Both the position numbers and the translations under genes were made by a program. A stretch of DNA of 64,000 bases from an uncultured Bacillota bacterium (lineage in GTDB: Bacteria > Bacillota_I > Bacilli_A > RFN20 > CAG-631), in assembly GCA_905197115.1 (NCBI GenBank), contig CAJJXN010000001.1, positions 1,463 through 65,462 on the forward strand. Direction: 5' to 3'. Of the stretch, positions 703-64,000 are shown in pieces (position 1 is the stretch's first letter; each line of letters begins with the position of its first letter). The notes under the pieces were generated by a model, which worked only from the letters and a program-made list of their open reading frames with translations, had not been told where the DNA came from and made no database searches.

Positions 703-2097
703 TTAGTTCCCTCCTCTTCCACCAACAGTCATGCTAGAAACACGAATAGTTGGTTGACCGACATCAGCAGGAATGCTACCACTAGAAGCACCACACATAC
801 CTTGTGCACGTTTTAAATTGTTAGCAACCATATCAATTTTAAGTAATACATTTGCCCCATTTCCAATTAAAGTAGCTCCTTTTACTGGAGTGGTAATTTT
901 ACCATTATTTACAATATAACCTTCGCTTACTGAAAAGTTAAAGTCACCTGTTGCCGGATTAACACTGCCACCACCTAACGATTTTGCATATAAACCATAT
1001 TTCGTGTTGGCGATAATTTCTTCAAATGTAGATTTGCCATTGTCAATAAAAGTATTTGACATTCTTGAAGTTGGCTCATATTTATAAGATTCACGACGGC
1101 AAGCACCATTTCCTTCTCGATTCATGGCTCTACCATTAAAGTTATCAATTAAATAATTTTGTAAAATACCATCTTTAATTAAAACGTTACGATAAGTTTT
1201 ATTTCCTTCATCATCAAAGTTTGCTGATCCCCAACCACCTTCAATTGTTCCATCATCAATAGCAGTTACTACATCACTTGCAATTTTAGTGCCTAATTTA
1301 TTGGTGAAAATAGATAAATTTCTTGAAACGGCTGATGCTTCAAGAGGATGACCACAAGCTTCATGGAAGATTACGCCACCAAATCCATTGTCAATAATAA
1401 CAGGCATAACTTTGGCAGGACATTCTTCAGCTTCAAGCATTGTAATAGCACTTTTTGCTGTTTCTTTAGCTAATGCTTCAATATCAATTTCGTCTTTGAA
1501 AAATTCAAAGCCTTTTTGAGCGCCAGGACCTACTCCTTGTGCTTCCATTTGTTCATCATTTTTTGCAATTGCCGTTAAATAGAGGCGACCTCTACAACGT
1601 GTATCATTAACAATTTTCCCATCTGTATTAAAAATGGTAATGTATTGACAAGAATTTGAAAAACGAATATCTACTTTCGCAATTTTTTCATCATATTCTT
1701 TCGCTGCTTTATAACCTCTTTTTAATAATTCCAATTGTTCTTGTAAAGGAACTTGATCATAAGGAATTTTTGGCAAATGTTTTTTAGGATTACGAACAAC
1801 CTTTAAAGGTTTTACTTCGTATTGTTTTTCTCCTTCAAAACTATCTTTTAATGTTGTTGCTAATTTAATTAAACTTTTAAAAGATAAATCATTGGTATAA
1901 CCATATACACATTTATCTTTTTTCAAAATGCGAATACCGCATCCATATTCATTGCCACTATTTGCTTTTGAAACAATTCCATTTTCTAAGGCAAGACTGG
2001 ATTCAAATGTATTTTCAAAAAAGAGTTCTCCAAAATCAGCACCAGTTTGTAAGGTGATATCAAGAATCTTTTTTGCTTTTTCTTTACTAATCATCAT
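703..2097 (-). CDS. tldD: TldD-family metalloprotease
   Basis: 464-aa ORF with the HEACGHPLE zinc-binding motif and a Gly-rich C-terminus characteristic of TldD. Paired with pmbA. Confidence 0.8.
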   Translation of the reverse strand: MMISKEKAKKILDITLQTGADFGELFFENTFESSLALENGIVSKANSGNEYGCGIRILKKDKCVYGYTNDLSFKSLIKLATTLKDSFEGEKQYEVKPLKVVRNPKKHLPKIPYDQVPLQEQLELLKRGYKAAKEYDEKIAKVDIRFSNSCQYITIFNTDGKIVNDTRCRGRLYLTAIAKNDEQMEAQGVGPGAQKGFEFFKDEIDIEALAKETAKSAITMLEAEECPAKVMPVIIDNGFGGVIFHEACGHPLEASAVSRNLSIFTNKLGTKIASDVVTAIDDGTIEGGWGSANFDDEGNKTYRNVLIKDGILQNYLIDNFNGRAMNREGNGACRRESYKYEPTSRMSNTFIDNGKSTFEEIIANTKYGLYAKSLGGGSVNPATGDFNFSVSEGYIVNNGKITTPVKGATLIGNGANVLLKIDMVANNLKRAQGMCGASSGSIPADVGQPTIRVSSMTVGGRGGN

Positions 2098-2227
2098 ATC
2101 GGCTCCTTTCTTATTGATTTCATTATATCACTTTTTATATTTTTTTATAGAAAAATATAATAAAAGTTTATTGAAGAAAAAAGCAGAATAGGTTATTCTT
2201 TATTTGAGAAAGATAGGAGAAATTGAA

Positions 2228-4216
2228 ATGGAAATAAAAAAAGAACTTGTTTATAAAGTTGATTATATAAATCCTACTGAAAAAACGAATCCAAGTTGTG
2301 CTTATGTTCCTGCTTTTAGAGGGCAAGATCAATTAATTATTTATACTTATGATTATTGTTATAAAACAAAAAATGGAATGAGTGGGACAAATCCGTGGGG
2401 ACTTGAAATAGCAATTAATGAGGATGGAATTGCGACAGAAATCAGTGATCGTTTAGTAATTCCTCAAAAAGGATTTTTATTAAGTGGCAACTCAAAAGCA
2501 CATACATTTTTATTAGAAAATGTAGAATTAGGAACAAAAGTTAGTTTTGATGAAAAAAGTATGTTATTAACAGTCCATGTAAATAAAATCAAATCGGCTT
2601 TATATACTTTAAATATAAAAATTCAAGAAATTCAAAATAGAGTTAAAGAAGCGTTTAAAGATGTTTTACTTTTTGATCGACACGTAGTGCAAGAAAATGT
2701 AAAATGGATTGAAACAAATTTTTTGAAATTAAACCAAATGCAAGCAAATGATTTAGATGAAAAAACAATAAATGAATTTTTTGAAATAAATGATAAAATT
2801 CAAAAAAAGATAACGGAAGTATATTGTGCAACAATGCCTAGTTATAGTGTCGAATCAAGAGGTGTTTGGTTCCGACCAGAAGAAAAGACTTTGCAAGAAA
2901 TCATACATAATTTAGATATTATGCAAGAATGCAATTTAAATACGTTATATGTTGAATCATTTTATAACGGAAACATTCCAGGAATTTCAAAAATCACTGA
3001 TACTTGTGAAGAAGTTAAAGAGGGAGATTATGGAATTTATAAAAAAGATTATTTAAAAGCTTTAATTGCCGAAGCACATAAAAGAAATATCGAAGTTCAT
3101 GCTTGGGTTGAAAACTTTTTTGTGGGAGAACATATTCGTTTTGACAAGGATTATCCTGATGAGTTTAGAATGGTGAATTATGATGGTACGACGATGCAAG
3201 GACCTGGAGATGGAAATAGTGAAATTATGGAAAACGGTTTTATTTTCTTAGATCCAGCGAATCCTAAAGTTCATGAATATGTGCTATCTATTTATGAAGA
3301 AATGTTAACTAATTATGATTTTGATGGCTTCCATATTGATTATGTACGTTATCCAAATGGTAATTTAGATATTTTAACAAGTAATGGCTATAGTGAATAT
3401 GCAATGGAAGAATTTAAAAAACGATATGGTTATGCTGAAACAGAAAATGTAAGAGAGTTGGTAAAAGATGACAAAGTGAATCAACAATGGATTCAATATC
3501 GATGCGATAAAATTACTTTAATGGTAAAAGAAGTTTACGAACTAGTTCATAAAATCAAGCCAAATTGTAAAATCTCAATGGCTGTTGTTCCAGAAACTGA
3601 TTATGCAATCAAAAATAAAATGCAAGACTGGGTTAAATGGGTAAAAAATGGTTGGATTGATATTACATTGCCAATGGCTTATTATTTTGGAACGAGCGAA
3701 ATTGAAAACGCAACGAGAAATTTAGTTACTTTTAATGAAAATAAAGCTTTTAGTTACACGGGAATTTCGCCAAACTATCCAGGGGCACCTAGTGTCGTAA
3801 ATGCTTATCAAATCGAGGCTTGTATTAAAAATAAAGCTCAAGGATATGCGATCTTTGCTTTACACAATATTTTACCTTATCCTTCTATTCAACATGTTTT
3901 AAAAATTGGACCAAATCGGAATGCTGCCGTTTTACCTCATGGTGATTTTAATAAAATATTAAATGCTTATAAAAGTGATTTATTAGAAAAAATCATTTAT
4001 TTTGAAGAAAATAACGAATTAGTTCATAAAAAAGAATTTCTTCATAAAATAAATGCTTTAAAAGCCGATAATTTAGAGGATTTAATTAATAAATTGAATT
4101 ATTTTATAGAAGAAGTTAAAAAAGATCTTGTGGGAAATTCTTATCAAGCCTTCATAAAACAAACACAACATATTTTAACAATTTTAAAAATTCAAGAATA
4201 TCAAGCGACAAAATGA
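2228..4216 (+). CDS. DUF187/GHL10 (YngK-like, family-10-like glycoside hydrolase) protein
   Basis: About 660 aa; the central region (RGVWFRPEE..., FDGFHIDYVRYP) resembles the YngK/GHL10 TIM-barrel family. GGAG RBS 10 nt before the ATG at 2228; the ORF track begins at 2204. Confidence 0.45.
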   Translation: MEIKKELVYKVDYINPTEKTNPSCAYVPAFRGQDQLIIYTYDYCYKTKNGMSGTNPWGLEIAINEDGIATEISDRLVIPQKGFLLSGNSKAHTFLLENVELGTKVSFDEKSMLLTVHVNKIKSALYTLNIKIQEIQNRVKEAFKDVLLFDRHVVQENVKWIETNFLKLNQMQANDLDEKTINEFFEINDKIQKKITEVYCATMPSYSVESRGVWFRPEEKTLQEIIHNLDIMQECNLNTLYVESFYNGNIPGISKITDTCEEVKEGDYGIYKKDYLKALIAEAHKRNIEVHAWVENFFVGEHIRFDKDYPDEFRMVNYDGTTMQGPGDGNSEIMENGFIFLDPANPKVHEYVLSIYEEMLTNYDFDGFHIDYVRYPNGNLDILTSNGYSEYAMEEFKKRYGYAETENVRELVKDDKVNQQWIQYRCDKITLMVKEVYELVHKIKPNCKISMAVVPETDYAIKNKMQDWVKWVKNGWIDITLPMAYYFGTSEIENATRNLVTFNENKAFSYTGISPNYPGAPSVVNAYQIEACIKNKAQGYAIFALHNILPYPSIQHVLKIGPNRNAAVLPHGDFNKILNAYKSDLLEKIIYFEENNELVHKKEFLHKINALKADNLEDLINKLNYFIEEVKKDLVGNSYQAFIKQTQHILTILKIQEYQATK

Positions 4217-53249: not shown

Positions 53250-54632
53250 CTATCTCAAAACTGTTATAGAAGCTGTTTGAGGAGATAATTTGAGTTTATT
53301 AGAATATGGAAATCCATTAACAATCGATAGTATAATAGTGATAACACCACCATGTGTAACTAAAAGAATCTTTTTATTTTGATTGTTTTGAATTAGATTA
53401 AAAAATGCACTTTTAATTCGATAATAAAATTCATTAGGAGATTCACCATTTGGATAATGCTCATTCATATCTAATGAAGAAAAGTATAAATTTGAATACT
53501 TTTCTTTAAATGCCTCTTTTGTTAAATTTGCTAATAAACCATTGTTCATTTCTCGAAAATCATCATTAAAAATAATATCCATATTTAACATTTTATTTAA
53601 AATTAAAGATGTTTCTTCTGCTCGTTTTAGGCTACTAGAAATAAAAAAATCATAGGAAGAATCAATTACTTTACAAAGTTCATTTACATCTTGAACGCCT
53701 TTTTCAGTCAAATGATTATTAGACCAACCACCTGTTTTATTTTGTTCGTCTTCTCCATGTCTTACAAGATGAAGTTCTACGTTATAATTCTTTAAATTCA
53801 ATTTTTCTAAAAAAGTAAGTTTATGAAATATGTTTATTATTGCACTAAAACAATCATTTAATGAAATTCCTTTAGTAAATTCGTGTTTTAAACAATAATT
53901 ATTATATAAATCTTTTATTCTATCAAAGGTAAAAATATCGTTTAAAATATTTTCTATATATTTTTGATCATAAGTAGTTCCCCTTGCATGAAAGGTATTT
54001 ATAATAGATGCATTTAAAAGATCGTTATCTATTTTCATTTTGTTTAATAAATACATATCAAAAAAATTTTTAGCTCTTGAATTATTTACCCCTTTTGAAA
54101 TTAACGTTTCAAATTTTTCAGCTATCATCGTTTTTACTGGATAAGCAAAGAGATTATAAGTTTCTGAACAAAATGGAGAGTGATAATTATAACTTATAGG
54201 ATATGGAGTAATAATATCATCAAAACCAATATCAATAGAAAAAATTTTCTTAACATTGTAAAACTGAGCTTGTATTTTAATTGATTTGCCACCATATTTT
54301 GATTTTTCAGCAATATCGTGCACACTAAGAAAAATGTATCTGATATTATCATAATTTTGATTGCATATATCTTTAAAAATGGATTTCAAATCATTTTCAT
54401 TCAATCTATTTCCAATATATTTTAAATCGATATCCATTGTACTTCGCATTTGAATTCCAACAATACTTTGCAAATAAAATCCTCCTTTTATTGCAAAATT
54501 TTGTGAATATTCACTTTTAGATAATCGATATAAAAAGCTCTCAAAGAAAAATACATCCCATGCCTTTTGAATGGAAATTTTGTTGCTTTTAGAATATATG
54601 GAAACTTTTGTTTTTATTTGACTTAGTTCCAT
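53250..54632 (-). CDS. AbiEii/AbiGii-family nucleotidyltransferase toxin fused to a C-terminal histidine-phosphatase (PGAM-like) domain
   Basis: N-terminal FFFESFLYRLSKSEY..FAIKGGFYL...RSTMDIDL (DUF1814 NTase motifs). C-terminal LVRHGEDE...SSSLKRAEET...LVTHGGVI (RHG and second-His motifs of histidine phosphatases). Confidence 0.65.
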   Translation of the reverse strand: MELSQIKTKVSIYSKSNKISIQKAWDVFFFESFLYRLSKSEYSQNFAIKGGFYLQSIVGIQMRSTMDIDLKYIGNRLNENDLKSIFKDICNQNYDNIRYIFLSVHDIAEKSKYGGKSIKIQAQFYNVKKIFSIDIGFDDIITPYPISYNYHSPFCSETYNLFAYPVKTMIAEKFETLISKGVNNSRAKNFFDMYLLNKMKIDNDLLNASIINTFHARGTTYDQKYIENILNDIFTFDRIKDLYNNYCLKHEFTKGISLNDCFSAIINIFHKLTFLEKLNLKNYNVELHLVRHGEDEQNKTGGWSNNHLTEKGVQDVNELCKVIDSSYDFFISSSLKRAEETSLILNKMLNMDIIFNDDFREMNNGLLANLTKEAFKEKYSNLYFSSLDMNEHYPNGESPNEFYYRIKSAFFNLIQNNQNKKILLVTHGGVITIILSIVNGFPYSNKLKLSPQTASITVLR

Positions 54633-55207
54633 CCAATCACCTCAAAAACATTTTTAATTTCATAATATATATCTAATTGTTTTGCATAATCATACAATTT
54701 TTTTAAATTCAAATAATTCCTTTTATATTCATTTATTGCATATACTTTATCTTCATAATCAAAATCTTCTCTTATAAACAAATCACAGATGCATCTTTCT
54801 TTATCATAGCATTTTACTTTATTTCCAAAAGGAGTCACAACCTCAGTTATACCTAAATAAAATGTAGATTTTCTCGATTGTTTAATAATAAAATTCTCAA
54901 TTTTTGGAAGACTTTTACCATATGCTATTGATGCTTCATATTGCTCATAATCTCTATTGGATAGATTATTTAAATATAATGCTGTATCTCCAGAATAAAC
55001 AAGATTACTGTAAAGAATAGAATTTATAAAAAATATATCTTCTACCGCATTATCAGTAATATAAATTCCACGATGAAGTTTTGTTAATTTTCCTTCTCTA
55101 ACTAGTCTTGTGATGTATATGGTGGGAATTCGATGCTCTTTTATTATATTAGAATACAGATACCCGTTATTCATATTTGCTATTTTAAGTATTGTTTCTT
55201 TATTCAT
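54623..55207 (-). CDS. AbiEi-family antitoxin/transcriptional regulator
   Basis: N-terminal AbiEi_4-like wHTH (ILKIANMNNGYLYSNIIKEHRIPTIYITRLVREGKLTKLHRGIY). 10-nt overlap with the downstream AbiEii gene. Confidence 0.6.
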   Translation of the reverse strand: MNKETILKIANMNNGYLYSNIIKEHRIPTIYITRLVREGKLTKLHRGIYITDNAVEDIFFINSILYSNLVYSGDTALYLNNLSNRDYEQYEASIAYGKSLPKIENFIIKQSRKSTFYLGITEVVTPFGNKVKCYDKERCICDLFIREDFDYEDKVYAINEYKRNYLNLKKLYDYAKQLDIYYEIKNVFEVIGWN

Positions 55208-55453: not shown

Positions 55454-56086
55454 TTATCGTACTTGTTTTTCCATTATGTAATTCGTCAAGGCAATTCCAT
55501 TTCGTATTACTAGTTGTTTTTTTACTATGTTAAAACCTCTTTGCATAAAGAAATGTTTAGCGGTTATAGACGAGTGCGTAATGACTTTACTTGTCTTGAC
55601 TTCTTTTTCTAATTCGTTACAGATTGCCGTTGCAATACCACGTCGTTGGTAGTCCTTATGAACATACAGCCTATCAAGATAACCCGTTTTATCTATGTCG
55701 CCAAAGCCAACTATGATATTATTTTCAACTGCAACAACCGTATAATGCTCTGATAAAGACTTATTCCATTCTGTCAAATCAATATTGCCTGTTGCCCACA
55801 CATTCAACTGTTCTTCGGAATAATCTTTGGCATTTACAGTATCGTTTGAACTCCAATTTTTACACACGAAACCCCACCCCGATGTCCACCTATAAATGGT
55901 GTAGAGATTTGACCTCCCCCTACCCTTTTTATAAAAATTATTCTCAATTTTTGCTAAAAAGTTGGTAATTTTTGAGAAAGCTTCGTATACGATTGTATCG
56001 TAATTCAAACGAGATAATAGGCTCATCGCTTGGCTCAAAAAGAAAGTAGACTTGAACCAACTGATGAAACTACAATCTTTATGCAA
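55454..56086 (-). CDS. GNAT-family N-acetyltransferase (5' end abutting or overlapped by the IS21 istB stop; likely true start at the ATG at 56026)
   Basis: C-terminal VVAVENNIIVGFGDID...LYVHKDYQRRGIATAICNELE acetyl-CoA binding motif. The ORF-track start is a TTG 8 nt inside the istB 3' end. Confidence 0.65.
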   Translation of the reverse strand: MHKDCSFISWFKSTFFLSQAMSLLSRLNYDTIVYEAFSKITNFLAKIENNFYKKGRGRSNLYTIYRWTSGWGFVCKNWSSNDTVNAKDYSEEQLNVWATGNIDLTEWNKSLSEHYTVVAVENNIIVGFGDIDKTGYLDRLYVHKDYQRRGIATAICNELEKEVKTSKVITHSSITAKHFFMQRGFNIVKKQLVIRNGIALTNYIMEKQVR

Positions 56087-58206
56087 GTGAAATTATTTGT
56101 GCATTTTGTATTAATCTTTTTTGTAATGTTTCCATCAGATGTGAATCAACCTTCATCTCTTTCCATGAGGATAATGGTCTATTCGTAACAATAATTATGC
56201 TTCGTGTTTCTTGTAAGAACATCATTATCTTATAGATTAAAATAAGTTCTTCTTCTGTAGGAGCAATATAGAATACATCATCGATAATGATTAAATCAGC
56301 ATTTAGAATATTATTCCAAACTTTTTTCTTTATTCTTGATTCAGCTAATAAATCATCAAGTGTTATGTATATCACTTTAGCACCTTTTTCTAATGCATTC
56401 ATACCAAGTGTTGATGCAAGTGATGTCTTACCAGTGGAGCAATCACCAACAATAAATATATTTTGTCTTTTTAAAGCAAAGTCAAATTCCTTTAGTTTAG
56501 ATAATTGCCATTTAAGACCATCTGTGATTCTAGTTTCATCAAATATCAATTGTTTTAGTCTTGAGGATTTCTTGATATCTTTTAGTTTATTGGCATTTCT
56601 AATATTCACTTCCTCAAGTAATATTTTATATAGATATTCTTTGTTGGATATCGTCTCATTATTTAAATCAATTGTTCCATTAGCAATATTCTGTAGATTA
56701 AGAATTTTAGCTAATTCTTGTATTTCTTTAGCATCTGCCATTTTCAATCATCTCCTTTCTAATTTCTTCAGCTCTTGCTTTGTAATGTCTAAAAGTATGT
56801 GTAGGAAGATATTTCTTAGCTGTTTTCTCACCCATTTCCATAAGTAACCATGAGCATAGTTCAAATGCAGTACAAATATCTTTAGTTACACAATATGTCA
56901 TTCCTTTAACCAAAATAGTTCTAGAATAGAATTTCTTTAAGCTTCCTATTTTTCTACATTGAACAAACACATATCTAGGTTTTTGTTCTCGTAATCTCTT
57001 CAAATACTTAGTAGCGAATTCACTATCTTTGTATTCAGTAAGTAACACTTCTTCAATTGTAGGTTCTTCTTTAGTTTCTATATCAAGTGGAATAATATTT
57101 CCAATTCCAGATACTAACCTATGCTTACAAAGTAGTTCGCTTGTACTTGCTAGATAAAAAATTAAGAAATCATCATGTCTTTCAATTCTGATTCTATCGC
57201 CTTCATTGATTTGTCCTGTAGGTAACTTATATAGATTATCTCTATATTCAACTGTATCATGATATACAGAATGAACAACAATTTCATCATTTTTCTTTTC
57301 GTAATACTTTTGAAGTTTTGGATATTCTTTTTTGAACAAATCACGAGGAGACTTCTTAGTTGTATCATTAATCATTCTGTTTCCATCATGATCAAGCCAA
57401 TCAATAAATTCTTGATTTAATCTATCTAAGCCATAATAAATTCTTCCATCAAGAAACTGATGTTTGACAAAATCAACTGTCTTTTCAACCTTACCTTTCG
57501 TAGATGGATCATAACCTTTACATAGATAAATAGAAAATCCAGTATCTTTGATGAATTCTTCAAATTCTTTAACGAAGATTACTTCTCCAAGATTCTCTGA
57601 AACAACCATCGTCTTATCTTGGCCATACATAATCATTTGTGTTGTACCACCAAAATAATGAAATGCAGCAATATGTGCATCAATTGTTGTTTTAGCATCA
57701 AATGGATCTACCGAAAAATATGCAAACTTCATTCTCGAATAAGATAAAGTCATACAAAAGAAATAAATTCTAACATTTCTTTTATAGGCTGTTTGCATCA
57801 CATATTGACCAAAATCAACTTGTGCTTCATACCCAGGCTCTGTCTGTTCTCTTAATATGAATTTTCTTGGTGGTTTAATTAAACCTGTTTGTTCCCTTAC
57901 TTTTTTAACATACCTAAAAAAAGTTGAAGTGGGTATTTCAAAATCTGGAAAGTCTTCTTTTATTCTATTTAATAAAACCGTATTGTTTATTTTAGGACAA
58001 ATCTTTAATATTTCAATAATATATTGCCTGTAATTATCTAAAATGAATTCATGTTCTTTTTGAAATGATTCAAAGAACTTTTCATCCTTATCCCACCAAT
58101 TACAAACTGTTTTATATGATAGATTCAATTTTTCTGATACTTTTAATTTTGAAAGACCTAGTTCTTTTAATTCTTGTAGTTTTTTAAATTGTTCAATTCC
58201 TAACAT
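56079..58206 (-). mobile_element. istAB: IS21-family insertion sequence coding region (istA transposase 56728-58206, istB helper ATPase 56079-56747); terminal inverted repeats not resolved by eye
   Basis: IstA: 492 aa, N-terminal HTH MLGIEQFKKLQELKELGLSKLKVSEKLNLSYKTVCNWW plus integrase-core DDE region. IstB: 222 aa, Walker A GDCSTGKTS, typical IstB. The two overlap by 20 nt as in IS21. Confidence 0.85.
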
Positions 58207-58424
58207 TTATTTTTACACCTCCTATTTGTTATTAGAATTGATTCTTCACACATTCATTAAGCATCACCTCCGTAAATAAAACTATTTTCTTCAATTAAAA
58301 CAAAAATAAAACTTCCATATGATATAAATTAATACTATTAACATTAAAAATCGTTACTGAGTATAGATTTTATATTATTGCACATAAATTATATCAAAAT
58401 ATGGAAGTTTTATCTATTTACACA

Positions 58425-59348
58425 CTATCTTAAAGAACGATTCATTTGATTAATACATTTTTTCTTTTGTTCAAGATTTGGATGAACATACAAATTTAAA
58501 GTTGTGCTTATATTAGAATGTCCTAATATAACACTTACAGTTTTATAATCACACTTTCCTTCAATACACCTAGTTGCAAAACTATGACGTAGTCCATGAA
58601 ACTTTAAATCTGGTATTTCCAATTTTTTCATTAATCTCTTATAATAATTACGATATGTTCTTGGCTCTGTAGGTTTTTCATCATTAGTTAAAACAAAATA
58701 TTCTTTGTTTACAACTTTCTTTAATGGTTTTAATATCCTTAATAAGTCTGTTGTCATAGGAATATCACGAATTGAATTTTTAGTTTTTGGCGTATCAATT
58801 ATTAATTCAGTTCTTTTAACTCCTTCATCAACTATGTAAATTCTTTGAATGGTTCTTCTGACATAAATAACTCCATTATCTACATCGATATCATCCCAAG
58901 TTAAAGCACACAATTCTCCAATTCTCAAACCAGTGCATAGGCACACATAAATACCTAAATTTTTAAATGTGAAATTTTTTTCAATGTAATCCATAATTTT
59001 TCTCTGGCTTGAACGGTTCAGCACGTCTAGCTCTTCGTTATCTCTTTGAGTTGGAAACTTTATATCAATCTCACAATAATCCAAATACTTATGTTTTACA
59101 CCAAACCTAAGTATCATTTTCAAAACAATTAATATATCCTTAATTGTTTTCTGGCTAAGTCCTTGTTCTAATTTTTTAAAAACAAAATCCTGAACATCAG
59201 CCTCCTTCACTTCTTCCTTATTACCAAAATATGGTAATAGATGATTTTCGACTAAAAGCACGTATGCAGAATATGTAGATTTTTTTACATATTGCTTTTT
59301 GTCTTTTTTCCATAAGTCAATAATTTGACTCAAAAATTTTTTGACCAT
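58425..59348 (-). CDS. tyrosine site-specific recombinase (phage-integrase family), candidate hsdS shufflon invertase
   Basis: C-terminal catalytic motifs HGLRHSFAT and LGHSNISTTLNLYVH (R..H..Y). Located directly beside the inverted hsdS cassettes. Confidence 0.85.
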   Translation of the reverse strand: MVKKFLSQIIDLWKKDKKQYVKKSTYSAYVLLVENHLLPYFGNKEEVKEADVQDFVFKKLEQGLSQKTIKDILIVLKMILRFGVKHKYLDYCEIDIKFPTQRDNEELDVLNRSSQRKIMDYIEKNFTFKNLGIYVCLCTGLRIGELCALTWDDIDVDNGVIYVRRTIQRIYIVDEGVKRTELIIDTPKTKNSIRDIPMTTDLLRILKPLKKVVNKEYFVLTNDEKPTEPRTYRNYYKRLMKKLEIPDLKFHGLRHSFATRCIEGKCDYKTVSVILGHSNISTTLNLYVHPNLEQKKKCINQMNRSLR

Positions 59349-59459
59349 GTTTATTTACCTCCTTTACATTAGTCATTTCTTATATACATAAATTTGCATA
59401 TAAATCAATTAGTTAAGCTATTATTTTTTGAATAATTTGAGTGATAGAATATCCTCAAT

Positions 59460-59477
59460 GTTCCCAATTTGAGATTT
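59460..59477. repeat. 18-bp recombination repeat gttcccaatttgagattt at hsdS 5' ends (copies: 59460-59477 direct, 61785-61802 direct, 61744-61761 inverted)
   Basis: Perfect copies read directly from the sequence; they encode VPNLRF on whichever strand they lie. Confidence 0.8.
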
Positions 59478-60647
59478 CCTGAATTTACTGATGAATGGCA
59501 AAAAAGAAAGTTATTTGAAATGGCGAATTTTTACAAAGGATGTGGAATATCTAAAGAACAATTAAGTACTCAAGGTAATGAATGTATTTTATATGGAGAG
59601 CTTTATACAACCTATGATACAGAAACAATCAATGAAATTAAAAGTAAAACAAATATTGATACCAAAGGGCTATTTTTTGGTAAAAAAAATGATGTAATAA
59701 TTCCATCATCTGGAGAAACTCCAATAGACATTGCTACTGCATGTTGTGTATGTAAAGACAATGTTTTGTTTGGTGGTGATCTAAATGTCATTCGCTTAAA
59801 ATCCGATAATGGCGCATTTATTAGCTGTCAATTAAATGGTAAGCGTAAATTTGATATTGCAAAAATAGCTCAGGGTGCATCAATTGTTCATCTACATAAT
59901 GATGATTTAAAAAAACTATCCTTATATACGCCAAAAGTTTTTGAAGAACAAATGAAAATTGTTGAATTATTTACGTTAATTGATATGAGAATCAGATCCC
60001 AAAACAAAATCATTGAGGAATATAAGTCACTTAAAAATTCAATTATAAATCAATTAATTTTTAATAATATAAAATTAAATCAATATGTTAAATTAAGAGA
60101 CTTTGCAGTTTTAAAAAATGGATATGCGTTTAAAAACAAATCATATACTGATGATGGTAAATTTAATATTATCACTATTGCGAATGTTCAAGGTGATAGA
60201 TATATAAACATATCATCTTGTAATAAAATACATCAAATTCCAAAGGATATTCAACCACATCAAATTTTAGATATTGGTGATATTTTAATTTCACTTACTG
60301 GAAACGTTGGTCGTGTTTCTTTAATTAATATTTCTAATTGTTTATTAAATCAACGTGTAGGTGTATTAAAATTTAAGAATAATGATTTGAAAAAGTATAT
60401 ATTTCAAGTGATTTCCAATAAAATATTTGAAAATAAAATGATTTTGAAAGGACAAGGAGCTGCACAAAAGAATATAGGAAATGAGGATATAGAATCATTT
60501 TTAATTCCTTTTTCTCAAGATATTTCATATATAAATGAAATAGTAAAGTTATTAGAATGTTTTGATGAAAAAATAGCCATTGAAAAGCAAATCATCAATG
60601 ACTATTTATATCAAAAAAAATATTTATTAGCTAATATGTTTATATAA
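59469..60647 (+). CDS. hsdS: Type I restriction-modification specificity subunit HsdS, cassette A (no ATG start; begins inside the conserved N-terminus)
   Basis: Conserved N-terminus ..VPNLRFPEFTDEW, central QNKIIEEYKSL, C-terminal YQKKYLLANMFI. In-frame stops at 59442-59447 with no ATG between them and the conserved motif. Confidence 0.8.
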   Translation: MRFPEFTDEWQKRKLFEMANFYKGCGISKEQLSTQGNECILYGELYTTYDTETINEIKSKTNIDTKGLFFGKKNDVIIPSSGETPIDIATACCVCKDNVLFGGDLNVIRLKSDNGAFISCQLNGKRKFDIAKIAQGASIVHLHNDDLKKLSLYTPKVFEEQMKIVELFTLIDMRIRSQNKIIEEYKSLKNSIINQLIFNNIKLNQYVKLRDFAVLKNGYAFKNKSYTDDGKFNIITIANVQGDRYINISSCNKIHQIPKDIQPHQILDIGDILISLTGNVGRVSLINISNCLLNQRVGVLKFKNNDLKKYIFQVISNKIFENKMILKGQGAAQKNIGNEDIESFLIPFSQDISYINEIVKLLECFDEKIAIEKQIINDYLYQKKYLLANMFI

Positions 60648-60700
60648 ACATGTTCTGTAAAAGATATGCTTTTTGCTTTTTATAAAGTGAAAGTATATCT
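60633..60700. repeat. about 68-bp repeat at convergent hsdS 3' junctions (second copy 62981-63050, about 94% identical, same orientation)
   Basis: tatataaacatgttctg(t/c)aaaagatatg(c/a)tttttgctttttataaag(t/c)gaaagtatatctttttc. It contains a palindromic core aacatgtttatataaacatgtt in which both converging genes end ..NMFI-stop. Confidence 0.8.
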
Positions 60701-61806
60701 TTTTCTATTTGTAATTTTTCCTTTAAATCATTAATTATACAAATAAACTTTTCTGCATTCTCATCGCATTGTGGAACTTGAAGTTTTAAAAACCAATCTT
60801 TATTGAGATGTTTTAAACCACTACCTTCAAATCCTATATAATCTATATACTTTTGTAGAACCGAAAATACTATTGAATAGAATTTAGTTAATAAGGAATT
60901 TCTAAATCTTATTACAAGGCAATCTGACATGGTTGTAAATTTTCCATTGTGATATTTAAAATTCGCTTTTCCCCCAGTATTTGCAATGATATATTCACCA
61001 TCAAAATCATAAGTGTTGAAATATTTAACTGTTTCTTCTTCATTTGTAAAGAATGGGTAATTGCCACCAAGCAAACCATCTCCTGATTGATGTTTTGTTT
61101 TTCTTTCAAAAATACAAATCTCTTTTACCGGTATAGTCTTAGAAATAGATTTCACCATTATATAACTTATCGAAAATATTTGAGATTTGATTTCCTCAAT
61201 GATTTTGTTTTGAGTTGATATTAATAAATCCATTTTACTTAAAACAATTCCTATTTTATTTTGAATTTCTAAGGTTGGAAAGTATAAAGAAATTTTTTCT
61301 AAACCATCTTGACTAATATTATAATGCTGAGCTCCTGCACCCATTTTTATAATGATTTTTCTAGCGGTTGGGGTATCTAAAAGATGTTTAAAAAATATAG
61401 GATCGTATTCTCCAATCTTTTTACCTCTAATGATAAAACCACCAAAAACAGATTTATTTACTTTATCCAAATAAACATTAGAGCGTCCAATATCTTCAAT
61501 TGTTTCTGAACTTCTTTGAAAAAGAATATCTCCATATTCAACAATAAAATTATTAAATGTGTCGATATTTATATCAACAAATCCTTTAATGCAATCATAC
61601 ATTATATAATCATTGTTTAAAATATCGGAAACTGAAATATATTTAGTTCCTTTTCCATATTTTTCTTGACTTTCATTTAATCCATTTTGAAATTTTAGTA
61701 ATGTTTTGATTTTTATCAATTTCCACTCACTATTATCATTCTCAAATCTCAAATTGGGAACTTTTGAGATTGTTTTTTTCTTATGTTCCCAATTTGAGAT
61801 TTTCAA
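60640..61806 (-). CDS. hsdS: Type I R-M specificity subunit HsdS, cassette B (inverted orientation, ATG start)
   Basis: MKISNWEHKKKTISKVPNLRFENDNSEW, central QNKIIEEIKSQ, C-terminal YKKQKAYLLQNMFI. Convergent with cassette A, with an 8-bp stop-codon overlap. Confidence 0.85.
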   Translation of the reverse strand: MKISNWEHKKKTISKVPNLRFENDNSEWKLIKIKTLLKFQNGLNESQEKYGKGTKYISVSDILNNDYIMYDCIKGFVDINIDTFNNFIVEYGDILFQRSSETIEDIGRSNVYLDKVNKSVFGGFIIRGKKIGEYDPIFFKHLLDTPTARKIIIKMGAGAQHYNISQDGLEKISLYFPTLEIQNKIGIVLSKMDLLISTQNKIIEEIKSQIFSISYIMVKSISKTIPVKEICIFERKTKHQSGDGLLGGNYPFFTNEEETVKYFNTYDFDGEYIIANTGGKANFKYHNGKFTTMSDCLVIRFRNSLLTKFYSIVFSVLQKYIDYIGFEGSGLKHLNKDWFLKLQVPQCDENAEKFICIINDLKEKLQIEKDILSLYKKQKAYLLQNMFI

Positions 61807-62993
61807 AGTATTCAGAAATAATCAAACTATGGCGATGTTCAGATTTCTTAAAAACATTTTCTACAAATTCTCTTTCTTGGGATCAACTTAGTTATATAGA
61901 TGAATCTGAGTTTAAAAATCTTCACTATGGATTAATACATAATGGAGCACCAACATTAATAAATTGTGAAGAATATCAATTGCCTTTTATGCAAAGCAAA
62001 ATAAAAAATTATACGCTATGCAAAAATGGTGACATTATATTTGCAGATGCCTCCGAAGACACAAAAGATATTTGCAAACCAGTAGAATTCATTAATATTG
62101 CAAACAACAAAGTTGTATCTGGATTACATACAATTCACGCACGAGATATAAAAGAATTAACAGTGATTGGGTTTAAGGGGTATTTATTTTCCTCATATAA
62201 TTTTCATAAACAAGTACATAGATTAACTCAAGGAACAAAAATATTTTCAATTAATCCTGGGAATTTTAAAGAAATGTATGTGGGAATTCCTGATGTAAAT
62301 GAACAAAAAGATATTGTTTATTTATTTAGTAAAATTGACAAGCGTATTGAATCCCAAAACAAAATCATTGAGGATTTAGACACTTTAAAGAAATCAATTA
62401 GTCTATTGATTTTTGGAGATAATAGCGAAATAAAGCTGAACTGGAAATTAGTGAAATTATCTAATGTTTTAAAAGAAAGAAAAACTTATGATATTAAAGA
62501 ATCCAAATATCCACACGCTACCTTATCAAAAGAAGGTATATACGCTAAAATAGATAGATACAATCGTGATTTTTTAGTTAAAGATGAAGAAAAGAATTAT
62601 AAAGTAACCCATCTTAACGACATTTGCTATAATCCGGCTAACTTAAAGTTTGGTGTGATTTGTTTAAATACTTATGGTGATGCTATTTTCTCTCCGATAT
62701 ATGTAACATATGAAGTAAGAGCAGGTAATGATCCTTATTTTATTTCACAATATATCACTAATCCTACATTTATTGGTCATATTAGAAAATATGAACAAGG
62801 AACGGTATATGAAAGAATGGCAGTTTCTTCTGAAGATTTTTTAAAAGGGGAAATCAATTTGCCAACTTATCAAGTTCAACTTTATATTTCTAAAATATTT
62901 AAATCTATCAATGACAAAATGAATTTGGAATTACAAGTTTTAGAAAAATATAAAGAGCAGAAAAAATTCCTACTCTCTAATATGTTTATATAA
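61764..62993 (+). CDS. hsdS: Type I R-M specificity subunit HsdS, cassette C (no ATG start; head-to-head with cassette B)
   Basis: ..VPNLRFS.., central ESQNKIIEDLDTLKK, C-terminal YKEQKKFLLSNMFI. In-frame stop at 61707-61709 and no ATG before the conserved N-terminus. Confidence 0.8.
   Translation: MRLFFSYVPNLRFSKYSEIIKLWRCSDFLKTFSTNSLSWDQLSYIDESEFKNLHYGLIHNGAPTLINCEEYQLPFMQSKIKNYTLCKNGDIIFADASEDTKDICKPVEFINIANNKVVSGLHTIHARDIKELTVIGFKGYLFSSYNFHKQVHRLTQGTKIFSINPGNFKEMYVGIPDVNEQKDIVYLFSKIDKRIESQNKIIEDLDTLKKSISLLIFGDNSEIKLNWKLVKLSNVLKERKTYDIKESKYPHATLSKEGIYAKIDRYNRDFLVKDEEKNYKVTHLNDICYNPANLKFGVICLNTYGDAIFSPIYVTYEVRAGNDPYFISQYITNPTFIGHIRKYEQGTVYERMAVSSEDFLKGEINLPTYQVQLYISKIFKSINDKMNLELQVLEKYKEQKKFLLSNMFI
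62343..62377. repeat. 35-bp mid-gene repeat cgtattgaatcccaaaacaaaatcattgaggattt (perfect inverted copy at 63602-63636; 23-bp core also at 59997-60019 direct and 61193-61214 inverted with 1 mismatch)
   Basis: Encodes the conserved central (R)IESQNKIIE(D/E) coiled-coil linker between the two TRDs in all four hsdS genes. Confidence 0.8.
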
Positions 62994-64000
62994 ACATGTT
63001 CTGCAAAAGATATGATTTTTGCTTTTTATAAAGCGAAAGTATATCTTTTTCTTTTTTGATTTTTTCATCCATTAAAGATAGCAATGAAATAATCAATTTA
63101 TTTTTATAATAACCATAATCAGGAATTGCAATACCTTTTATAAAATCAGCATTAATATTGCTTTGCGTTCCTGTTTCAAGATATCTATGTAATTTTTTTT
63201 CTTTAAAATATGATAGATAATAATATAAAAAATCTAGTATAACTTTATCAGTTATAGTCATCGAAAATATTGCTTGACTTGTTGTTAAAGGGATTTTATT
63301 AATAGCAACTTGTCCTACTGATGCATACATAGACAATACTAATGAATCCTTTGGAACTATCCAAGCAGTTGAGTTTTCTAAGCCTTCTTGAGTTAATGTC
63401 TTCTGAGTCCAATAAATATACTTTCCTTGTTCAGTCATATCAGAGATACTTAAAAAAGGGATTTCTCCAGCATAATATTTTTTATTTGTAGATTTTGGTG
63501 TTCCACCGGCTCTGCCCTTTTCGTAAAAAGAACTCAAAGTGTTTCGGTGCATAGGAATTTGCGAAAAAAGTTTATCGCTAATTATTTTCTTTTTAATAAT
63601 TAAATCCTCAATGATTTTGTTTTGGGATTCAATACGCTTGTCAATTAATCCAAGCATAGTTGATATTTTTGTCATTTCTTCTATAGAATCTGGATACTTA
63701 ATATCTGCATTCGAAACTAAACTCCATTCTGCTCTAGGCATTTTTGTTCCACTCGAAGTGCTTGCTATTTTCATAAAATATTCTGTTTGTAGATAGTAAA
63801 ATAAATAACTATTAAGCATTGCAGAGCTATGCAATGCCCATATTTCTGTAGAGCAAACACCGTTAAAATTTGAAAACAAAAATTTTCTTAAATATGGTCT
63901 TAATTTTCCAAAAAGAACATCTCCTTTGAAAAATTTTGTTTTTATAGATTTTTGATTCTTAGCTTTAAATATTTCTAGCATCCTACAAGAATCTTGTTCT
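62986..64000 (-). CDS. hsdS: Type I R-M specificity subunit HsdS, cassette D, 5'-partial (continues beyond the window end; probably the expressed copy downstream of an off-window hsdM)
   Basis: GDVLFGKLRPYLRK TRD motif near the window edge, central ESQNKIIEDLIIKKK, C-terminal YKKQKSYLLQNMFI. The reading frame is still open at position 64000. Confidence 0.8.
   Translation of the reverse strand, partial: EQDSCRMLEIFKAKNQKSIKTKFFKGDVLFGKLRPYLRKFLFSNFNGVCSTEIWALHSSAMLNSYLFYYLQTEYFMKIASTSSGTKMPRAEWSLVSNADIKYPDSIEEMTKISTMLGLIDKRIESQNKIIEDLIIKKKIISDKLFSQIPMHRNTLSSFYEKGRAGGTPKSTNKKYYAGEIPFLSISDMTEQGKYIYWTQKTLTQEGLENSTAWIVPKDSLVLSMYASVGQVAINKIPLTTSQAIFSMTITDKVILDFLYYYLSYFKEKKLHRYLETGTQSNINADFIKGIAIPDYGYYKNKLIISLLSLMDEKIKKEKDILSLYKKQKSYLLQNMFI

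Follow-up and report, generated by a model that had tools for sequence, protein, structure and literature searches.

The closest described counterpart of the locus considered here is the Bfa9343I system of Bacteroides fragilis NCTC 9343, which comprises four hsdS genes (two full-length and two half-length) with six target recognition domains (TRDs) and 8 alleles. A single expression site follows hsdM, a putative tyrosine invertase, BfiA (BF1843, clade 3), is encoded outside the inverton, and both the inversions and distinct methylation motifs have been shown experimentally (PMC7672463, PMC7641763). About 117 clade-3 loci have been described, one from Tenericutes and four from Firmicutes included (Huang et al., 2020; PMC7672463). 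Here, we describe a related array at the end of a 64,000-nucleotide (nt) stretch of DNA from an uncultured Bacillota bacterium (contig CAJJXN010000001.1, positions 1,463 to 65,462), referred to in full length as the window. The segment 58425-64000 of this window holds a tyrosine recombinase gene and four hsdS-like cassettes in alternating orientation, head-to-head and tail-to-tail. It is probable, at roughly 85%, that the locus is an hsdS shufflon, with one expressed hsdS, three silent two-TRD stores and inversion at two classes of repeats. The locus is a higher-capacity instance of a well-described inverton class and not a new category of system. An original prediction, made from the letters of the window, had set the layout above SpnD39III-like loci in complexity. 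The layout has a precedent in Bfa9343I, where four hsdS genes and an outside recombinase are likewise found (PMC7672463, PMC7641763).

Anatomy of the hsdS array

The array could be followed beyond the window on a contig of ENA assembly ERZ501785 (L029; the contigs recovered from public assemblies are numbered with an L), which was found by an exact-protein look-up of cassette A, runs past the window and is collinear with window positions 58001-64000 at 100% identity. The four cassettes, A to D, share the central motif QNKIIE and a C-terminal LL(x)NMFI, and Pfam detects Methylase_S (PF01420) in all of them, in two stretches in A, B and D and in one in C. The features of the segment are as follows.

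58425-59348, minus strand: tyrosine site-specific recombinase, presumed invertase; 307 amino acids (aa), Pfam Phage_integrase (E 1.8e-30) and Phage_int_SAM_3
59460-59477, plus strand: 5' repeat, copy a, an exact 18-mer encoding VPNLRF, at the recombinase-proximal silent position P1
59469-60647, plus strand: hsdS cassette A, putatively silent; Methylase_S E 6.3e-22; N-terminal TRD (N-TRD) 59478-59996, C-terminal TRD (C-TRD) 60020-60632
60000-60019, plus strand: central repeat, copy a, an exact 20-mer encoding QNKIIE
60631-60719 with 62977-63064: 3' conserved repeat, 93% identical over 89 nt, encoding the C-terminal helix of B and D
60636-60651: perfect palindrome of 16 bp, ATGTTTATATAAACAT, where A and B meet tail-to-tail (from the sequence and a pattern scan of the collinear L029)
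60640-61806, minus strand: hsdS cassette B, putatively silent; Methylase_S E 2.3e-18; C-TRD 60648-61192, N-TRD 61213-61743
61193-61212 and 61744-61761, minus strand: central and 5' repeats of cassette B, an exact 20-mer and an exact 18-mer
61762-61784: spacer of 23 nt that separates the inverted 5' repeats of B and C where these meet head-to-head
61764-62993, plus strand: hsdS cassette C, putatively silent; Methylase_S E 5.5e-06; N-TRD 61803-62354, C-TRD 62375-62980
61785-61802 and 62355-62374, plus strand: 5' and central repeats of cassette C, an exact 18-mer and an exact 20-mer
62982-62997: palindrome ATGTTTATATAAACAT repeated in full where C and D meet tail-to-tail (from the sequence and the L029 pattern scan)
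62986-64000, minus strand: hsdS cassette D, which is the copy in the expression site and runs off the window end; Methylase_S E 1.4e-20
62994-63604, 63605-63624 and from 63625, minus strand: C-TRD, central repeat (the same 20-mer) and N-TRD of cassette D

The repeats of all three classes (5', central and 3') lie where the original prediction had placed them, above chance expectation. The 5' repeat, GTTCCCAATTTGAGATTT, has three copies in the window against 0.01 expected (three or more in 0 of 100 shuffles), and the central repeat, CAAAACAAAATCATTGAGGA, has four against 0.04. The complete locus on L029 holds exactly four copies of each, alternating in orientation, and a pattern scan of this contig found no copy of either in the other genes of the locus. 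At the tail-to-tail junctions, the palindromes encode ...NMFI-stop on both strands, with overlapping stop codons, and the convergent genes thus overlap by 8 nt. At the head-to-head junction, the open reading frames of B and C each read through the other's 5' repeat over the 23-nt spacer. The eight TRDs are mutually no more than about 30% identical over their variable parts, and 16 distinct specificities are therefore plausible. The guanine-plus-cytosine (GC) content of the array, ~23-29%, is like that of the surrounding DNA.

In the window isoform, only cassette D occupies an expression site. Its frame is open to the window end, with no stop upstream of an ATG at 63981, and on L029 the complete gene (394 aa) starts about 170 nt past the window end, with an ATG that follows the ribosome-binding site GAGGAGAGG and opens the leader MSEKTINKIPN, itself followed by VPNLRF. 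For cassettes A, B and C, neither an ATG nor a Shine-Dalgarno sequence was found in the window sequence or in the pattern scan of L029. Cassette A carries an in-frame TAG four codons upstream of its 5' repeat, and its sole start codon is a TTG inside VPN-L-RF that lacks a Shine-Dalgarno sequence; B and C start at TTG codons within their common junction. A search for an identical protein record of cassette B, translated from its TTG, returned nothing; gene callers pick other starts for the silent copies. A sigma-70 promoter and terminator scan of 58200-64000 gave 36 promoter-like sites against 44.4 in shuffles, and is uninformative at 26% GC. A, B and C are considered silent because of the missing ATG and Shine-Dalgarno signals and the operon context, and not on the strength of promoter prediction. 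The recombinase and the hsdS family membership of the cassettes, as originally predicted, are thus borne out by the Pfam matches listed above. The further claim of four complete hsdS genes stands only in part: there are four two-TRD cassettes, but D is cut by the window end, and A, B and C have no credible start.

The genes hsdM and hsdR, which had been predicted to lie beyond position 64000, are both present on L029. The operon runs in the order single-TRD hsdS, hsdR, a YgjP-like gene, a DUF2188 gene, hsdM and the expressed hsdS. HsdM (503 aa) scores 317 bits against TIGR00497 (cut-off 243) and is directly followed by cassette D, and HsdR (1039 aa) scores 496 bits against TIGR00348 (cut-off 285). 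Loci identical to this one are present in human gut metagenomes. The head of the operon is formed by an additional specificity gene.

L029 18719-19288 (approximately window-equivalent 69.8-70.4 kb), operon head, upstream of hsdR: single-TRD hsdS; the start chosen gives a length of 189-218 aa

This gene contains no copy of either the 5' or the central repeat, even with up to 3 mismatches allowed, which rules it out as a shuffling partner. The system may, on this sequence evidence, pair one fixed half-specificity subunit with a variable one. Separately, the YgjP-like/SprT-like metallohydrolase and DUF2188 genes occupy L029 14624-15581, between hsdR and hsdM, and conservation of the YgjP gene extends to two related loci, L005 and L007.

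Recombinant arrangements in public assemblies

The eight TRDs (An, Ac, Bn, Bc, Cn, Cc, Dn and Dc) were used as separate queries and placed on every contig recovered. Read from the recombinase (rec) to hsdM, the arrangements are as follows.

Window and L029: rec / AnAc / BnBc / CnCc / DnDc / hsdM
L028, L030 (GCA_902472695.1) and L031: rec / AnAc / BnBc / DnDc / CnCc / hsdM
L002: rec / CnDc / DnCc / ...
L003: rec / CnBc ...
L001 and L034-L038: BnDc in the expression site, behind hsdM
L039 and L040: rec / DnCc / AnDc / BnAc / CnBc / hsdM

It is evident from L028, L030, L031, L002 and L039 that the structural isoforms foreseen by the original prediction exist. One clean inversion between two 5' repeats, from window position 61783 to ~64137, distinguishes L028, L030 and L031 and puts the whole of cassette C (Cn-Cc) into the expression site. 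An inversion between central repeats is seen in L002 (Cn-Dc and Dn-Cc), and in L039 and L040 all four cassettes are chimeric and intact, with each of the eight TRDs present once. In L001, L002, L003 and L039, the recombinase flank meets Cn or Dn with the breakpoint at the 5' repeat 59460-59477, and the central repeat at 60000-60019 is the breakpoint of the Bn-Ac and An-Dc chimeras in L039. Throughout, the breakpoints fall inside the 5' and central repeats; the TRD segments are 99.8-100% identical across arrangements, and what separates one segment from the next is precisely an 18-20-nt core. The reading frame is preserved, and chimeric proteins that are full-length and in frame are on record in the protein database (P0002, P0004, P0005, P0008, P0012 and P0125). 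Each begins as expected for its position, with the leader of the expression site, the FFSYVPNLRF leader of the junction or the start of P1. Of the 16 possible N/C combinations, ten (AnAc, BnBc, CnCc, DnDc, BnDc, CnDc, DnCc, CnBc, BnAc and AnDc) have been recorded, four of them (DnDc, CnCc, BnDc and CnBc) in the expression site.

The reach of such inversions was explored by a breadth-first search in which only oppositely oriented copies of one class, 5' or central, were allowed to recombine. The search yielded 384 configurations, 192 at the cassette level; at most 3 steps are needed to bring any of the 16 alleles into the expression site, and the L039 arrangement is reached in 5. The proposed 4x4 combinations by inversion at these two classes are in keeping with both the model and the ten combinations on record. 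The 3' repeat, in turn, was never needed in the search and is a breakpoint in none of the observed isoforms. The repeat is indeed present at the 3' junctions, as had been noted, but it is a conserved region coding for the C-terminal helix, and no isoform needs recombination there. It was set aside as a third recombination site, as the 5' and central classes suffice to reach every complete arrangement.

Two readings of the shorter contigs bear on these arrangements. The four-cassette layout could be an assembly artefact of a two-gene locus, as the two-cassette contigs L001 and L035 would suggest. This was considered and rejected as exceedingly improbable, given that four cassettes, with every TRD present once, are found in no fewer than five independent assemblies of different origin (L028, L029, L039 and L040 from ENA, and the metagenome-assembled genome (MAG) L030 from NCBI), and that the design of four cassettes recurs, with other TRDs, in a Christensenellaceae MAG (L005). 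The second reading is that excision or deletion between direct 5' repeats occurs besides inversion and gives rise to two-cassette loci, possibly with reintegrating circles, as at the pneumococcal tvr locus. The order hsdM / Bn-Dc / Cn-Cc / recombinase, joined exactly at the repeats, is found in the two-cassette contigs L001/L034 (part of a contig of 421 kb) and L035; states with Cn-Cc at P1 and Bn-Dc at P2 are reachable, and a P2-P4 repeat deletion gives exactly this two-cassette structure. On the other hand, chimeric assembly through mixed isoforms gives the same path, other samples of the series show head-to-head junctions and Dn (L002, L032, L036 and L038), and no circle junction was seen. 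Such excision is possible but doubtful.

Possible switching within populations and the presumed role of the recombinase

Many contigs start or stop at or within the array (in L004, the contig start coincides with the 5' repeat), and in related species it is common for the contig to stop no more than ~800 nt from the recombinase. In L002, L032 and L036, one TRD is found twice, the second copy being only a 30-59-nt overhang at the contig end; a de Bruijn graph yields such overhangs if alternative junctions coexist in a sample. The contig breaks and overhangs point towards switching within populations and fit mixed populations, as far as can be read from the assemblies.

The recombinase itself is encoded outside the invertible array, 111 nt short of the array's first 5' repeat, and is the same in all isoforms; that of a mouse-gut MAG, MGBC122639, is 100% identical to it. 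Besides Phage_integrase, Pfam finds a SAM-like domain (Phage_int_SAM_3) at its N-terminus. The nearest solved relative is the Tn1549 integrase Int (6emy, E 1.6e-20), and the segments TGLRIGELC, HGLRHSF and GHSNISTTLNLYVH are conserved in the alignment with it. By the same alignment, the catalytic set R...H-x-x-R...H/W...Y is intact. From family knowledge and the conserved linkage, it is likely that this adjacent enzyme catalyses the inversions.

Homologues of the recombinase with 61-86% identity occur in Bacteroidetes, Christensenellaceae, Clostridia and other Mollicute MAGs. An hsdS open reading frame stands beside the homologue in 12 of 23 related loci, with the array between hsdM and the recombinase in 10; in most of the others, the contig ends within the distance given above. 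In L022 and L025, with full flanks, no hsdS was found beside the homologue. Most of the related arrays have two cassettes. Among the Bacteroidetes, many of which have a recombinase 61-73% identical next to an hsdS array, some loci (L008 and L010) have the order full/half/half/full known from B. fragilis, and the Christensenellaceae MAG L005 has four full-length cassettes, a 23-nt spacer and a palindromic tail junction. The repeat cores GTTCCnAATTTGAGATT and CAAARCAAAATmATTGA are conserved across the related loci and are much like the published B. fragilis repeats IR3 and IR2. These homologues and repeat cores make the locus a putative member of clade 3 (BfiA-type). Regarding the cassettes themselves, the An-Ac pair has full-length homologues of ~53% identity in many Bacteroidales, B. 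fragilis included, among them a 'MULTISPECIES' Bacteroidales protein present on 343 contigs. This combination of TRDs appears to be conserved widely, in agreement with a horizontal spread of the system.

Several points weigh against the locus being a programmed shufflon driven by its own recombinase. Six of the 16 N/C combinations were not found in public data. Metagenome contigs can be chimeric paths through isoform mixtures, and the two-cassette L001, L034 and L035 may be examples. The isoforms could represent fixed differences between near-identical strains and not frequent switching within a clone, and the crossovers could stem from another recombinase or RecA, and not from the adjacent enzyme. 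Moreover, part of the spnIII switching of Streptococcus pneumoniae persists without all known site-specific recombinases (PMC6620402), and the B. fragilis invertase is only putative, its role being genetically untested (PMC7641763).

The arrangements might, then, be rare events fixed in strains by occasional homologous recombination, with no programmed high-frequency switch. Every isoform indeed comes from a different sample or assembly, and there are two strain backgrounds, one with a full copy of an IS21-family element beside the recombinase and one with only a remnant of it. Against this, flanks and TRDs are 99.8-100% identical among isoforms, at least five arrangements occur in one strain background, every breakpoint lies within the 18-20-nt cores, and contigs break at the array, some with alternative junctions as end overhangs (L002, L032 and L036). 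Further, arrays of this kind are accompanied, across phyla, by recombinases of one dedicated family, and the homologous B. fragilis locus switches in cultures (PMC7672463, PMC7641763). Strain-fixed rearrangement is thus quite improbable.

It is also unlikely, if somewhat less so, that the shuffling, though real, is independent of the adjacent enzyme and relies on RecA or some other recombinase at the short repeats. With no more than 18-24 nt of identity, the repeats are short for RecA, and the catalytic residues of the adjacent recombinase are in place. In addition, its family is tightly linked to hsdS arrays, with the repeat cores kept where the surrounding DNA has diverged.

Under the preferred reading, that of a shufflon served by its adjacent recombinase, this enzyme would pair inverted copies of one repeat class and invert the DNA between them. 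Inversion at the 5' repeats would let whole cassettes or N-TRDs trade positions, and inversion at the central repeats would exchange C-TRDs; in either class, recombination between oppositely oriented copies would move whole cassettes or single TRDs in frame. In-frame inversion at four 5' and four central repeats would thus join any of 4 N-TRDs to any of 4 C-TRDs, giving 16 specificities. The HsdS made from the hsdM-proximal copy would set the motif for N6-methyladenine (m6A) and restriction, so that a population could carry up to 16 methylomes. Switching is expected to be frequent in clonal populations, each allele presumably conferring a different bipartite methylation and restriction motif.

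Neighbouring DNA

On its other side, the recombinase gene is bordered by a complete IS21-family element (window 56079-58206, minus strand) with istA (492 aa, rve) and istB (222 aa, IstB_IS21). In the background of L003, L004 and L039, only the first 521 nt of this element are left, at 97.7% identity, and beyond the remnant MatE, AdhE and an M60 peptidase stand in place of GNAT and AbiE. The sequences suggest a rearrangement associated with the insertion sequence at the edge of the restriction-modification locus. Further away in the window (53250-55207, minus strand), an AbiEi-like antitoxin of 194 aa overlaps a 460-aa fusion of the AbiEii nucleotidyltransferase-toxin with His_Phos_1. The joining of AbiEii to a histidine phosphatase is unusual for a type IV toxin-antitoxin/abortive-infection pair. 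Finally, in the 6.6-kb metagenome contig L038 (positions 1568-3601), the 5' half of hsdM is replaced by sequence that matches guanylate kinase and UvrD_C, downstream of yicC, remA and rpoZ. This contig is probably chimeric; a rearrangement truncating hsdM could also account for it.

Implications

The locus extends phase-variable Type I methyltransferase specificity to uncultured Anaeroplasmataceae (Mollicutes) from human and mouse gut metagenomes, with an allele space double that of the B. fragilis prototype. Subpopulations should differ in their methylome and, as a result, in methylation-based binning, in phage susceptibility and possibly in gene expression, and assemblies will tend to break or turn chimeric at the locus. 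Since its isoforms can be read from existing metagenomes, the locus offers a natural test case for inverton dynamics in vivo. A literature search of incomplete coverage found no prior description of inversions in Anaeroplasma or of 16-allele hsdS loci. Tentatively, this might be the highest-capacity single-locus Type I switch yet described (16 alleles, ~192 cassette-level configurations, eight full TRDs and two repeat classes), a probably horizontally acquired inverton of the Bacteroidetes type (BfiA clade) in a gut Mollicute, maybe with excision between direct repeats that leads to two-cassette derivatives.

Comparison with known systems

The pneumococcal SpnD39III locus shares with the present one a single expressed hsdS, silent inverted hsdS genes and a locus-encoded tyrosine recombinase, as well as inversions at short 5'-end and central-linker repeats that switch the specificity of the methylome. 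It differs in its partial silent genes, 6 alleles and repeats of 15, 33 and 85 bp (PMC4190663, PMC4948785). PsrA/CreX, the recombinase of SpnD39III (clade 1), is encoded within that locus and is too distant to appear among the homologues found here. The present locus had been predicted to be more complex than such layouts of one active gene plus partial cassettes. This is so in that its silent cassettes hold two full TRDs, but the scheme remains one of an expressed copy with silent ones.

In Mycoplasma pulmonis, also a Mollicute, the hsd1 and hsd2 loci likewise have inverted full two-TRD hsdS genes and inversion at 5' and central sites. There, two hsdS genes flank hsdM and hsdR in each locus, and the recombinase HvsR (clade 6) is encoded elsewhere and also serves the vsa genes (PMC7672463). 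With the SpnIV tvr locus (PMC6265443), the resemblance would lie in variation added by excision at direct repeats, if the two-cassette contigs are real. That system works mainly by excision and reintegration at direct repeats, whereas here inversions explain every complete arrangement.

In both Bfa9343I and the present locus, an operon of hsdR, an extra gene and hsdM is followed by one expressed hsdS, and only the copy downstream of hsdM is expressed; four hsdS genes alternate in orientation, and the tyrosine recombinase lies just outside the invertible region. The inverted repeats are placed alike, at the 5' end (xPxLRF) and in the central linker (QNKII). For the 5' repeat, the published inverted repeat (IR) IR3 of Bfa9343I, AATTTCCCAACTTTGCGATTTCC..., compares with AATGTTCCCAATTTGAGATTTCC here; for the central repeat, IR2, GAGCGTATCGCAACCCAAAACAAAATAAT, and AAGCGTATTGAATCCCAAAACAAAATCAT here are identical at 24 of 29 positions in our own alignment. 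The two systems differ in capacity, with four two-TRD cassettes and 4x4 = 16 alleles here against 8 in B. fragilis, and in the number of repeat classes, two of which suffice here as compared to four. Moreover, the present locus resides in a Mollicute host of ~26% GC and carries a constant single-TRD hsdS at the head of its operon.

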